A stretch of DNA of 64,000 nucleotides from Candidatus Poribacteria bacterium (GTDB taxonomy: Bacteria; Poribacteria; WGA-4E; PCPOR2b). The position numbers were made by a program, and so were the translations under genes. The notes below the pieces were generated by a model. It had not been told where the DNA came from, did no database searches, and was given only the letters and a program-made list of their open reading frames with translations. Shown piece after piece: positions 27,225 to 44,053 of this stretch; the stretch's first letter is position 1, and the number at the start of each line of letters is the position of its first letter. The stretch lies in NCBI GenBank assembly GCA_965204355.1, contig OZ241983.1:291913-355912 (forward strand), read 5' to 3'.

Positions 27225-28571
27225 ATGACACAGATGGAACAGAAAAATCCGGACAATGCCTCAGGCGGTCCTCAAATTTTCGGTTGGTGCATGTATGACT
27301 GGGCAAATTCTGCCTATGTAACCACAGTGGTGGCAGGGGTATTGCCAATCTATTTCGCCACAGGGATTGTGGGCAAAGAGGGTGTCCAGATCGGGAATAC
27401 CGTTGTCAGCGCAGACGCGCTCTGGGGTTATCTAATCAGTGCTTCGGCGATGTTCGTATTTCTGTTTGCTCCGGTTCTCGGTGCCATATCGGACTTCTCT
27501 GCATCTAAGAAAAAGTTTCTGATCACATTTGCTTACATGGGCAGCATCAGCGCAACGCTCCTCTATTTTTGCCATTCTGGAGATGTATGGCGAACCGCTA
27601 CCCTATTTCTGGTCGCACAGATTGGATATGTGGCGGCGAATGTCTTCTATGATGCCTTTCTGCCTCAAATCGCTTCCGAGGATAAAATAGACTGGGTATC
27701 CAGCAAAGGGTTTTCCTATGGCTACATCGGCGGCGGATTGCAATTTGCCATTACGTTGGGATTGGTCGCTGGCGGCGGAAGCATCGGGATTGGTCAAGGG
27801 CTCGCAGCCCGCATTGGACTAGGAATGGCAGGCTTATGGTGGGCGGGTTTTACACTTTTTACAGTCAAAAAGCTGAAAGAGGCGGGGGCGATAGAGGCGA
27901 TGCCAGAAAAGTACCAATCGCAACCGAAGATTGTCGCCTATACCGCCATTGGGATAACGCGAACGCTCGCAACGATTAGAAAGGTTCGACGTTTCAAACA
28001 TCTGCTGCTGTTCTTAATTGCTTTCATGATCTATAACGACGGCGTTCAGACCGTTATCAGTATGGCAACGATTTATGGGACTGAAGAATTAAAATTTTCT
28101 GCAACGGTCCTGATGGTTACGTTGCTGATGATTCAGATTATCGCTGCCGGCGGTGCCTTACTATTCGGCAGGATCGCTGGTAAGATCGGGGCGAAACGAG
28201 CTTTGATGTTAGCGTTACTCCTCTGGAGCGGGGTTGTCACCTATGCTTATTTTCTCCATACTGTTACGGAATTTTTCATCTTAGGCGTCGTTGTAGGAAT
28301 CGTACTCGGCGGTTCGCAAGCGCTCAGTCGTTCTTTTTACGGGGCGATGATTCCCGAAGAAGCCTCCGCTGAGTTTTACGGATTTTATTCTGTCTTTAGC
28401 AAGTTTTCAGCGATTTGGGGACCATTGGTGTTTGCCATTATACGGCAAGTTACCGGAACGCCACGATTAGCTATCATTTCATTGATGGTCTTCTTTATTG
28501 TGGGGCTAATTCTGCTCGCCTTTGTGGATGAAGAGAAAGCGAAGGAAGCCAAACATTCCGGGGCATTCTAA
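27225..28571 (+). CDS. MFS transporter, UMF1/Atg22-like
   Basis: WCMYDWANSAY, NVFYDAFLP, GYIGGGL, YNDGVQT, GGSQALSRS. Confidence 0.88.
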   Translation: MTQMEQKNPDNASGGPQIFGWCMYDWANSAYVTTVVAGVLPIYFATGIVGKEGVQIGNTVVSADALWGYLISASAMFVFLFAPVLGAISDFSASKKKFLITFAYMGSISATLLYFCHSGDVWRTATLFLVAQIGYVAANVFYDAFLPQIASEDKIDWVSSKGFSYGYIGGGLQFAITLGLVAGGGSIGIGQGLAARIGLGMAGLWWAGFTLFTVKKLKEAGAIEAMPEKYQSQPKIVAYTAIGITRTLATIRKVRRFKHLLLFLIAFMIYNDGVQTVISMATIYGTEELKFSATVLMVTLLMIQIIAAGGALLFGRIAGKIGAKRALMLALLLWSGVVTYAYFLHTVTEFFILGVVVGIVLGGSQALSRSFYGAMIPEEASAEFYGFYSVFSKFSAIWGPLVFAIIRQVTGTPRLAIISLMVFFIVGLILLAFVDEEKAKEAKHSGAF

Positions 28572-30155: not shown

Positions 30156-30326
30156 GTGCCGGGCATCAAATAAACAGATGCAATGCCCCGAATTCACGCT
30201 ACCGTCAAGCAATTTTTTATATGCGATTGCCCTATCCAGACCCTCAAGTTTACCACACCGGCCTCCAAACTCATCCCACTGAAATAGAAAAATCACTCTA
30301 GAACCGAAAAAATAAGCAAAAAAGTA

Positions 30327-30355
30327 TTGACAGCCTTTTGGACATAGTATAGGAT
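30327..30355 (+). promoter_or_regulatory. sigma70-type promoter of the candidate ncRNA
   Basis: A-rich UP region, then TTGACA-N17-TAGGAT. Confidence 0.7.
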
Positions 30356-30360
30356 AGATG

Positions 30361-30551
30361 ATTGTGTGGGCTCCGAGTTGTCGGCTCGAAGCCCACTGAA
30401 GCAAAACGAGATAGGAGCTCGAATCGCTTCGTGATTGTTAGACTGGAATCTAACAATCTTCTATAGTATAACCTTTTACGCTGTTAGTTTCCATCTAAAT
30501 AAAAGGGGCTGCACGATTCGGGATAATCCGACCATGCAGCCCCTTTTTTTT
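30361..30551 (+). ncRNA. Candidate structured ncRNA or cis-regulatory leader, family not recognised
   Basis: Three adjacent hairpins (30366-30396, 30398-30430, 30433-30458) lie between a promoter and an intrinsic terminator. Confidence 0.65.
30501..30551 (+). terminator. Rho-independent terminator
   Basis: AAAAGGGGCTGCA...TGCAGCCCC followed by T8. Confidence 0.85.
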
Positions 30552-30793
30552 AGGTCAACCAACAGCAATAAGGGGTAGGTTTGCACTAAAGTGTGGAGTA
30601 GTGAAATCGGTACTCAGGCTTGCAAAATCGTTCATACAGCAACAAGGCATACATCAGAGAAATCCTCAATGAACACAGGGTTTCGAGGCGTATTACCGAT
30701 GTATGACGTTTTTGGGTGTGCCTTAGATTTCGCCCATAATTTCAGACATTTGATGCTTGCCACACTTAACTGCAGTACTACCAAGGTAGCAAC

Positions 30794-32446
30794 TTGAACA
30801 TAAAAACAACAGATAGGATTTATCACCCAGAGCACGATTCCAAACTCACGCGAAGACAATTTATAGAACGATTTTCGGCCGCGGGATTAGCTCTCAGCGG
30901 TTTAGGGCTTTTAGGTTGTGATGTTGCAGATATAGTTTCGCCGGTTCGTACGCCTACAGAGACTGTCCACGACGTGCCTGCTCTCATTATTGGCAGCGGG
31001 TTTGGCGGTGCGGTAACAGCCTTGAGATTGGGTCAAGCCGGGATTCGCACGATGGTTATTGAACAAGGCAAACGGTGGCCAATTACACCGAATACATTTA
31101 GCCCCTCTTTTCCACCAGATGGACGCTCAACGTGGTTGCGAACACGAACCATTTTGCCTTTCGGTCCCTCGTTGCCGATCAGCAGACACACCGGCGTGTT
31201 AGATCGCATTGATTATGAAAATATACAGGTATACCGGGGGACAGCAGTAGGGGGAGGATCGATTGTATACAGCGGCATTACCGTGCAACCGCCCGAAGAC
31301 CTTTTCTATGAGATTTTCCCTCGTGGTCTCTCCTATCAGGAGTTAGAACCTTACTATGATCGGGTCCGACATATGCTCCGTATTACAACGGTGCCGGCGG
31401 ACATTGAGGCACAGCCATACTACGATTACGCCCGTGTCTTTGCTGAGCATGGGGCTAACGCCGGATTAGAAGTCCAGTCTGTGGGACAAGCGACCAACTG
31501 GGATGTTATCCGATCCGAAATTGCTGGCACTGTAAGACCCTCTACCATCATCGGAGAGGCGTATTATGGCAATAACAGCGGTAGCAAAAACAGTCTGGAT
31601 CAAAATTATCTGCCGATGGCTGAAGCCACAGGTTATGTGACTATCCATCCCTTGCACCGTGTGATTGACATCGCTCAAAAAAGCAGTGAGAATTATAGGG
31701 TAACGGTTGAAGAAATAGACGAGACAGGTAGGGTTCTGGAAACGAAGGAAATCACCACGACCTACCTGTTTTTAGCCGCAGGCTCTGTGGGCACAACGGA
31801 GTTGTTGGTTAAAGCTCACGAGTTAGGAAATTTGCCGAATCTCAATGAAGAAGTTGGACAGGGATGGGGAACAAATGGGAGCTCCATGTTCATACGTTCT
31901 GTGAACGAATTAACTGGGAGGATGCAGGGCGGTCCCGTAATCAAAATGATTTTAGATTACAATAATGCTGCAAGTCCATCGAGCGTCGAATCAGTCTTCT
32001 TTCCCCTCGGGCAGGAATGCGGGTGTCTGTTACACTTTTTGCTCTCTTTAGACACCGAGCGCGGGCAATTTTCGTATAATTCAGCTACCAACAAAACGGA
32101 GTTGATGTGGCCTGTATCAGGCAGCGATCAAGCGGTAAGAGCGGCAATGGATTTTGTTAAGCGTATGAACGCAGCCAACGGCGGTCTCCTTGGTCCACCC
32201 GCAGGACTGCCTTTTCAATTGCCTGATGTGCTAAAAGATTTTACGTATCACCCGTTGGGTGGGATGGTAATGGACAAAGCGTGTGATTTGAACGGGCGGG
32301 TTCACGGCTATCCCAAAATGTATGTAATGGACGGTTCTGCGTTACCCGGTTCGTGTGCCACTGCCAATCCGTCGTTGACGATTGCGGCTTTGGCCGAGCG
32401 TAACATAGAAACCATTCTCGCAGAAGATTTTGTCACCGCAGGTTAG
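30794..32446 (+). CDS. Cholesterol oxidase-like GMC oxidoreductase, Tat lipoprotein
   Basis: TRRQFI..LLGC; IIGSGFGGAVTALRLG, YGNNSGSKNSLDQNYL, GWGTNG, YHPLGG, ANPSLTIAALAERN. Confidence 0.85.
   Translation: MNIKTTDRIYHPEHDSKLTRRQFIERFSAAGLALSGLGLLGCDVADIVSPVRTPTETVHDVPALIIGSGFGGAVTALRLGQAGIRTMVIEQGKRWPITPNTFSPSFPPDGRSTWLRTRTILPFGPSLPISRHTGVLDRIDYENIQVYRGTAVGGGSIVYSGITVQPPEDLFYEIFPRGLSYQELEPYYDRVRHMLRITTVPADIEAQPYYDYARVFAEHGANAGLEVQSVGQATNWDVIRSEIAGTVRPSTIIGEAYYGNNSGSKNSLDQNYLPMAEATGYVTIHPLHRVIDIAQKSSENYRVTVEEIDETGRVLETKEITTTYLFLAAGSVGTTELLVKAHELGNLPNLNEEVGQGWGTNGSSMFIRSVNELTGRMQGGPVIKMILDYNNAASPSSVESVFFPLGQECGCLLHFLLSLDTERGQFSYNSATNKTELMWPVSGSDQAVRAAMDFVKRMNAANGGLLGPPAGLPFQLPDVLKDFTYHPLGGMVMDKACDLNGRVHGYPKMYVMDGSALPGSCATANPSLTIAALAERNIETILAEDFVTAG

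Positions 32447-43978: not shown

Positions 43979-44053
<75 letters not shown>

Follow-up and report, generated by a model that had tools for sequence, protein, structure and literature searches.

Introduction

Premature termination of transcription controls the PyrR-regulated pyr leaders of Bacillus, which consist of an anti-antiterminator, an antiterminator and a terminator, and the pbuE/ydhL adenine riboswitch is a transcriptional ON riboswitch. The RNA targets of ANTAR proteins of the EutV, NasR and AmiR type comprise two hairpins with conserved hexaloops, the second of which overlaps a terminator, and riboswitches for cyclic di-GMP (c-di-GMP) form regulons with many copies per genome, located before genes for surface or secreted proteins. 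These are the described systems closest to the element reported here, which lies at positions 30327 to 30551, on the + strand, of a 64,000-nucleotide (nt) stretch of a Candidatus Poribacteria genome (assembly GCA_965204355.1, contig OZ241983.1, positions 291,913 to 355,912; hereafter the window). Poribacteria are uncultivated, abundant symbionts of sponges. To our knowledge, almost nothing is known about their gene regulation, and the literature listings and opening lines of abstracts available to us contained nothing on their non-coding RNAs.

The element is a real, new, lineage-specific leader RNA family of Poribacteria. We consider it probable, though well short of certain, that it acts as a cis-acting transcription attenuator, a 5' leader confined to this lineage, in which one strand of a hairpin, H2, would pair either within that hairpin or with the terminator that follows. 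An earlier reading of the window from its letters alone (the sequence-only reading) had described a structured, stand-alone RNA with three potential pseudoknots formed by its loops, or else an attenuator or riboswitch upstream of an oxidase gene, and parts of both descriptions are taken up below.

Results

A structured RNA family of Poribacteria

The 241-nt stretch that contains the element is present in three full-length copies in its own 6.15-Mb genome (G000). From 20-odd genomes we gathered 72 distinct copies. All but L079, which is truncated, went into an alignment of 71 (A2), from which a covariance model (R1) was built and run over 151 Poribacteria genomes. R1 found the RNA in 27 of them: 17 of the 19 genomes of the window's genus (g1), four of nine in g11, three of 57 in g14 and two of four in g5, both of the latter weak. 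None of the genomes sampled from the other 18 genera had it. Forward R1 matches above 90 bits numbered 11, 10 and 9 in the genomes G017, G018 and G009, respectively. One of the g14 copies (L158, G098:C47:29964-30151) scored 202 bits, equal to the window copy; it could have been transferred recently, or its contig could have been assigned to the wrong genome. A pattern scan of the genomes of 185,579 species returned 77 loci, 63 of which lie in records of Candidatus or uncultured Poribacteria; at the 14 loci outside Poribacteria the likeness was limited to the 28-nt pattern itself, with scores of at most 20.4 bits. A second, differently anchored pattern gave a single match in JGI metagenomes, a chance match that R1 does not recognise.

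Across A2, hairpins H1 to H4 and the terminator were paired in 92.6% of 3023 cells, compared with 34-52% when the partners were slid, and 19 of 43 pairs carried changes on both sides; the observed values were reached by 0 of 500 shuffles. H1 (30366-30396; 7 + 4 base pairs (bp), with the hypervariable 7-nt loop TTGTCGG) was 86-96% paired in its two helices, with changes on both sides in 7 of 11 pairs. H2 (30398-30430), in which 5 bp, a 4x4 internal loop and 4 bp lead to the hypervariable 7-nt loop ATAGGAG, was 97% paired, and its stems are near-invariant (0.16 bits). H3 (30433-30458), a 10-bp hairpin with a variable apex, was 90% paired, with 6 of 10 pairs changed on both sides. It is followed by a conserved, single-stranded joiner (30459-30483, entropy 0.65 bits) with the sequence …ATAGTATAACC…TTTAC…, and by H4 (30484-30498), a small hairpin of 4 bp with a conserved loop, which was 83.8% paired with two of its four pairs changed on both sides. 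The intrinsic terminator (30504-30551) is composed of a G+C-rich stem (30504-30544), 99.1% paired, and a T8 run (30544-30551). All of these parts lie on the + strand. The structured RNA of the sequence-only reading is real and conserved, with stems that covary across the 71 copies, and on re-reading the sequence we found the promoter, H1 to H3, the small hairpin and the T8 terminator exactly where that reading had placed them.

H3 varies in form, with insertions in some copies and absence from some subfamilies. An orthologous subfamily of about 146 nt (L187-L192) has no H3 and a different terminator loop, and the copies L028 and L074 also lack H3. A further group (L059, L062, L063 and L065) carries an extra hairpin 5' of H1 and mostly stands without an adjacent open reading frame (ORF).

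The + strand of the window copy folds with an energy of -73.3 kcal/mol (z = -5.86; 0 of 200 shuffles as good). The - strand folds more strongly still (z = -11.98), so folding energy alone cannot assign the strand.

An Rfam 15 covariance-model search of the whole window returned only a tRNA at 43979-44053 and nothing at the element. With E values up to 10 admitted between 30200 and 30800, the best match was to an animal microRNA model on the other strand, at 22.9 bits against a threshold of 86, and eight related loci (about 51 kb, holding at least 14 copies) gave no match at E values up to 0.05. The sequence-only reading, which had recognised no known RNA here, is supported on this point. Another candidate structured RNA from Poribacteria, the 'Poribacteria-1' motif, is reported to figure in the list of 224 motifs of Weinberg et al. 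2017; identity with it is excluded only so far as that motif is contained in Rfam 15.

Hypervariable loops and the fate of the loop-based models

The loops of H1 and H2 are the fastest-changing parts of the element, with entropies of 1.33-1.42 bits (for H1, 1.33 in the loop against 0.48 in the stem). They measure 6-7 nt and have 39 and 33 alleles, the H2 loop counting 39 in the 71 copies. In four of five orthologous copies, four to five of the seven H2-loop bases (A2 columns 52-58, positions 30411-30417) are changed, while outside that loop only 4-9 of about 180 bases separate these four copies from the window; the fifth (in G015) has one of seven loop bases changed and 19 of 182 elsewhere. 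Gene conversion between copies and diversifying selection are possible causes of such fast change. The H2 loop was considered as a gene-specific address and rejected, since a single allele precedes six to seven different clusters of downstream proteins.

This variability is part of the evidence against the specific models of the sequence-only reading, namely a pseudoknotted stand-alone RNA, a sponge for CsrA, or ribosome-mediated attenuation through a leader peptide, MIVRLESNNLL. The three loop complementarities, the GGA motifs in the loops and the short ORF are all present in the window copy, and comparative data contradict each of the models built on them. Over the 71 copies the three pseudoknots were paired in 50.3% of cells against 38-52% with partners slid, and with pairing across the family no better than in the controls and loops this variable we rejected them. 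GGA is not conserved, only one type of the commonest H2-loop alleles containing it, and no CsrA was matched in G000, a 99.6%-complete genome, under a search that was positive in control genomes. A start codon for the leader peptide occurs in 49 of 71 copies, where it opens 30 distinct peptides of 3-14 codons, with a Shine-Dalgarno (SD) sequence in 0 of 49; a second leader-peptide candidate, an ORF over H1, has its start in only 14 of 71 copies and was rejected. As a group, these models are scarcely tenable.

A conserved alternative pairing between H2 and the terminator

The 3' strand of H2 at 30418-30426 is near-invariant, and its reverse complement, just as invariant, lies inside the terminator at 30514-30522. 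The resulting long-range helix of nine pairs was paired in 99.2% of 639 cells (71 of 71 copies) and in at most 50.5% when slid; with four more pairs, between 30427-30430 and 30505-30508, the value was 97.0%. We also examined a divergent set of 91 distinct sequences, obtained from a model-made alignment of 103 matches by removing five reverse-strand terminator artefacts and all identical rows, and here the long-range helix was paired in 93.7% of cells (1056 of 1127) and H2 in 96.5%.

Such variation as the putative antiterminator strands have is consistent with pairing. An A at the fourth position faces a U in all six cases in the 71-copy alignment and in 8 of 12 cases among the 91 sequences, and in the divergent copy L195 the G common to H2 and the long-range helix has become A while both of its partners have become U. 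In the long-range helix, 204 of 923 cells are G-U as against 26 that are A-C, and a helix so rich in G-U exists only as + strand RNA and not as a DNA inverted repeat. Where the terminator loop is short, it consists of the conserved 9-nt stretch, which there has no local partner and is still invariant (0.31 bits).

Predicted energies place the two states close together. For transcripts ending just past the inner stretch of the terminator, 52 of the 71 copies had the antiterminator in their minimum free energy (MFE) structure, and 17 had H2. When each state was forced in the nascent RNA, the antiterminator lay on average 2.6 kcal/mol below H2; it was the lower of the two in 52 copies and the higher in 15, with no difference in 4. 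At full length, 66 of 71 MFE structures included the terminator and 53 included H2, and the antiterminator state lay 10.9 kcal/mol above the terminated optimum. An antiterminator favoured in nascent RNA together with a terminator favoured at full length is the pattern of a kinetic switch.

We also considered a second antiterminator helix, between a C/U run of the joiner and an A/G run at the foot of the terminator (-8.0 kcal/mol, against -3.5 for shuffles). It was rejected as not register-specific (86.9% paired, against 91.1% at slide +1; 267 of 500 shuffles), and we keep the contact between the two runs as a possibility.

In the mechanism that we propose, a strong sigma-70-type promoter would start the RNA a few bases before H1, and H1, H2 and H3 would fold as they emerge. 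Once the 5' half of the terminator has been made, 30514-30522 would take the place of the 5' strand of H2 opposite 30418-30426, part of the proposed switching strand 30418-30430, to form the antiterminator, which may extend to 30430 by way of 30505-30508. The terminator stem could then not close, and transcription would read through to the ribosome-binding site (RBS) and the gene about 20-45 nt downstream. Where H2 holds, it would serve as an anti-antiterminator, the terminator would form and an RNA of about 190 nt would be released. The data show that structure and complementarity are conserved, how the energies of the states are balanced, and that the copies are linked to genes; that termination and read-through alternate, and what decides between them, we infer.

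The same complementarity could have a simpler origin. The element might be a constitutive expression cassette, in which a strong promoter, a stabilising 5' structure, a leaky terminator and an RBS were copied together with duplicating genes for secreted proteins, and in which H2 and the terminator match by duplication of a hairpin module and without regulatory use. This explanation, which we regard as unlikely, draws on the similar stem sequences of H1, H2 and the upper terminator, on homology that spans promoter and RBS and, in many copies, extends as far as the signal peptide, on tandem arrays with a 2.4-kb period and on the weak covariation of the antiterminator. It does not account well for the invariance of the 9-nt stretch in those copies where it has no local partner, nor for the three-way compensated change in L195, and the closeness of H2 and antiterminator energies across 71 copies is a balance not expected from chance or descent alone.

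Position before genes for exported proteins

Homology among the copies begins in an A-rich stretch before the -35 box and continues through the terminator and a conserved spacer to an AAGGAG motif, which in the relatives of the window copy is followed by a start codon. In the window the spacer occupies 30552-30575 (+ strand) and ends in the SD-like AAGGGG. An SD-preceded, co-oriented ORF begins 17 to 97 nt beyond the counting point in 52 of 72 copies, in 47 of these within 40 nt; the counting point itself lies 11 to 22 nt beyond the T-run, and the ORF is mostly 20-45 nt from the T-run. Eight of the 72 copies were excluded from the ORF count, their start having been picked inside the terminator tail, and their translations also have hydrophobic N-termini. 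The short gap between the T-run and the ORF leaves no room for a separate promoter, and the RNA can no longer be described as standing alone.

The ORFs that follow are strongly biased towards export. An N-terminal hydrophobic segment, a signal peptide or membrane anchor, was present in 46 of the 52, compared with 1000 of 4037 control ORFs (25%), which were SD-preceded, at least 150 amino acids (aa) long and drawn from the same genome. Several of the six ORFs without such a segment fall just below the threshold and encode proteins with twin-arginine signals. The mature parts of the downstream proteins fall into 28 unrelated BLAST clusters, and the proteins include small cysteine-rich secreted proteins (90-135 aa), lipoproteins, membrane-anchored proteins and a GMC oxidoreductase. 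Judged by this gene linkage, the leader appears to mark a secretome regulon of exported and membrane proteins from many unrelated families.

These data also bear on the idea that the copies are sibling small RNAs that act in trans, with a constitutive terminator and a product of about 190 nt that would target other RNAs or proteins, their neighbours being incidental or reached by leak-through only. A strong conserved promoter joined to a strong terminator and the presence of several copies per genome would suit such RNAs, and other bacteria offer precedents for riboswitch leaders that, once terminated, act in trans. However, the conserved RBS and co-oriented ORF directly behind 52 of 72 copies, with no promoter between, and the excess of exported proteins call for a link in cis. 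The loops are the most variable parts, whereas the seed of a trans-acting RNA would be expected to be conserved, and the invariant sequence in the terminator loop is accounted for by its internal partner. We consider action purely in trans improbable.

In G009, G017, G015, G004 and G010 the copies form tandem arrays with a spacing of about 2.4 kb. An array unit (L038 4600-12000; L039-L044) consists of the leader RNA and two genes. One encodes a small, cysteine-rich secreted protein whose signal peptide is conserved and whose mature part varies, the other a membrane-anchored protein of about 380 aa with a conserved C-terminus. The arrangement looks like a cassette system of fast-diversifying secreted proteins. 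The array proteins belong to no Pfam or NCBIfam family and had no usable neighbour in the Atlas. The site of the arrays is syntenic, with a TonB_C/TPR/ABC-permease group on one side and a pair of xylose-isomerase-like and GFO-IDH-MocA genes on the other. The arrays of G017 adjoin a gene for a PAS/sigma-54 activator, and two arrays in all adjoin such a gene. No regulator recurs beside the copies; only the array synteny does so (the ABC permease and the second gene of the previous unit). Genes for DDE transposases of the IS4/IS5 insertion-sequence type lie inside two arrays (L039 8932-9579; L044 6932-7822).

Such arrays raise the question of a mobile or recombining element at the DNA level, either a miniature inverted-repeat transposable element (MITE) or a site like the attC of integrons. 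Multiple copies arrayed between gene cassettes, and the transposase genes just mentioned, fit that explanation. The sequence-only reading had named a high-copy MITE as the outcome that would overturn it, and of that outcome the multiplicity stands, at a mere three copies in the genome of origin, while the rest does not: the element invariably points the same way as the ORF behind it, and the homology block does not end in inverted repeats (by inspection; no formal search for terminal inverted repeats was made). The G-U pairs of the long-range helix exist neither in DNA nor on the other strand, and the viral contigs that we searched gave 0 matches. A mobile element is thus highly improbable as an explanation.

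Evidence that weighs against an attenuator

Several observations count against the attenuator as we propose it. The covariation of the antiterminator is thin, with double changes in one of nine pairs and a score reached by 12 of 500 shuffles, because both strands barely vary. The H2-terminator complementarity could be a relic of hairpin duplication, and in window-type copies, which have a long terminator loop, it is possible that the contact forms as a pseudoknot while the terminator stem is still closed. The related copies are kin and not independent samples. Of the 72 copies, 13, mostly in arrays, lack the TTGACA promoter and carry another conserved upstream sequence instead. Seven copies have no SD-preceded ORF nearby and in five, including that of the window, the ORF is more than 120 nt away; these numbers speak for small RNAs acting in trans, and copies without a close ORF could act as free RNAs. 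Finally, the only RNA run found consists of assembled contigs, one of which, 519 nt long and from a close relative (19 differences), spans 30250-30700 and thereby crosses both the promoter and the terminator, including DNA upstream of the promoter. This contig may be contaminating DNA or read-through from elsewhere, and it shows neither the start nor the end of a transcript.

Candidate effectors

That a trans-acting factor decides between the two outcomes of the attenuator is a proposal we make tentatively. The most likely such factor would be a dimeric RNA-binding protein that clamps the twin hairpins H1 and H2 and, by stabilising H2, causes termination. We lean towards this arrangement because H1 and H2 have their upper stem in common and are separated by one base, and H1 takes no part in the alternative pairing. 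Next most likely would be a small ligand that binds and stabilises a three-way junction in which the antiterminator helix would meet H3 and H4, in the region of the conserved joiner.

A search for CAT_RBD, the domain of RAT antitermination of the BglG/SacY type, gave 0 matches in G000 with positive controls, and no gene with a GGDEF domain was found in this 99.6%-complete genome, which makes c-di-GMP an unlikely ligand. One ANTAR gene is present in the window's genome. ANTAR genes occur in 6 of 19 other g1 genomes and in 53 of 57 g14 genomes, whereas the RNA occurs in 17 of 19 and 3 of 57, and control by ANTAR proteins was rejected on this opposite distribution. From the downstream genes no ligand could be inferred, nor did they offer a metabolic clue.

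Comparison with described leaders

As in an attenuator, a terminator that folds in 66 of 71 copies stands between the promoter and the ORF that it would regulate, close by in 52 of 72, and a conserved alternative pairing that excludes the terminator is present (99.2% paired; in the nascent MFE structure of 52 of 71 copies), with thin covariation. With a riboswitch in mind, we note the conserved joiner and a possible three-way junction.

In its logic the element resembles both the PyrR-controlled leaders and transcriptional riboswitches. With the PyrR-controlled leaders it would share three mutually exclusive structures, an upstream hairpin whose stabilisation frees the terminator, an antiterminator that appears more stable in nascent RNA, and control by premature termination. 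It differs from them in having no relation by sequence or in Rfam, in its twin hairpins with variable loops, and in its association with genes for exported proteins instead of pyrimidine synthesis. Like the pbuE/ydhL riboswitch, the element has a conserved joiner between variable hairpins and would be under kinetic control, with a helix that closes a three-way junction and shares its 3' strand with the 5' half of the terminator; unlike it, the element can lack H3 and has an extra, competing H2 with a further hairpin, H1, upstream.

Two adjacent hairpins of similar sequence upstream of a terminator recall the ANTAR targets. However, the loops are 6-7 nt long and hypervariable here, and H2 lies about 85 nt before the terminator. 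H3, the joiner and H4 stand between the two, which are related by complementarity and do not overlap. The multi-copy placement before genes for exported proteins resembles the regulons of c-di-GMP riboswitches, from which the element differs by the absence of any Rfam match and of a GGDEF gene from the genome. Of the features that define ANTAR targets, CsrA sponges, leader-peptide attenuators and MITEs, the element lacks those that we tested.

Promoter and surroundings of the window copy

The promoter (30327-30355, + strand), identified by a promoter scan and by comparison of copies, is of the sigma-70 type: TTGACA (-35) at 30327-30332 and TAGGAT (-10) at 30350-30355 are spaced by 17 nt and preceded by the A-rich stretch. 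The scan scored 10 of 12 matches. Within 2 kb, four promoter-like sites were found against 2.7 +/- 1.8 expected, so that a single match is no better than chance and the call needs comparative support. Such support comes from TTGACW-N16-18-TAnnnT upstream of 41 of 72 related copies and from a promoter region alignable among nine copies.

The alternative upstream sequence of 13 copies, seen for instance in L024, L038:4604, L039, L041, L042:4621, L044:6409, L071 and L073, ends in a 17-nt palindrome directly 5' of H1. Candidate roles for this palindrome are an operator, a processing site or the terminator of the previous unit.

Downstream of the window copy, a GMC-family oxidoreductase of 550 aa with a twin-arginine, lipoprotein-like N-terminus is encoded at 30794-32446 (+ strand). 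In the orthologous copies of G018, G005 and G015, the ORF of this oxidoreductase, with its twin-arginine (TAT) signal, starts 22 nt past the conserved spacer. In the window and in G006 and G007 it starts at +231 instead, owing to an insertion of about 215 nt (30576-30790 in the window, + strand), which parts the leader from the ORF and is absent from G018, G005 and G015. The insertion is single-copy in its own genome, and similar short sequences (AAGG..GTAG) at its two borders suggest an insertion event. The orthologous oxidoreductase is linked to the leader in six genomes. The homologues in these orthologous copies have thus stayed with the same downstream gene, and this linkage favours the suggestion, already made from the letters alone, that the element is an attenuator- or riboswitch-like leader of the oxidase gene. 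The oxidase itself contains GMC_oxred_N/C domains; its best NCBIfam model, cholesterol oxidase, scored 142.9 bits where the cut-off is 850, which makes the protein a distant relative and not an equivalog, and the name 'cholesterol oxidase' is not established.

Upstream of the element, a 62-aa ORF at 29985-30173 matches only positions 382-411 of an ATG22/MFS transporter profile and is probably what is left of a transporter gene resembling the one that is intact at 27225-28571.

Discussion

Our analysis of the window copy and its relatives describes an RNA family with alternative pairings upstream of genes for exported proteins. We advance, as a rather doubtful extension, that the leader represents a new class of riboswitch or factor-dependent attenuator that serves as a common 'tag' of the secretome of a sponge symbiont, through which one signal would switch on or off at least 28 unrelated families of exported proteins, including the tandem arrays of fast-diversifying, cysteine-rich small secreted proteins. 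The signal would possibly be derived from the host, or report the state of the envelope or of secretion. The fast-evolving loops of the hairpins could add a second layer of control that is specific to each copy.

If the attenuator holds, it would be an orphan in an unusual gene context, secretion rather than metabolism, and Poribacteria would possess a lineage-specific RNA family whose switch architecture can be read. Its leader can be tested without culturing the symbiont and might be used as bait for the signal or protein that it senses. Dozens of exported proteins that otherwise resist annotation would be grouped into one regulon, among them the cysteine-rich secreted proteins of the arrays, which are plausible factors of host interaction or competition.

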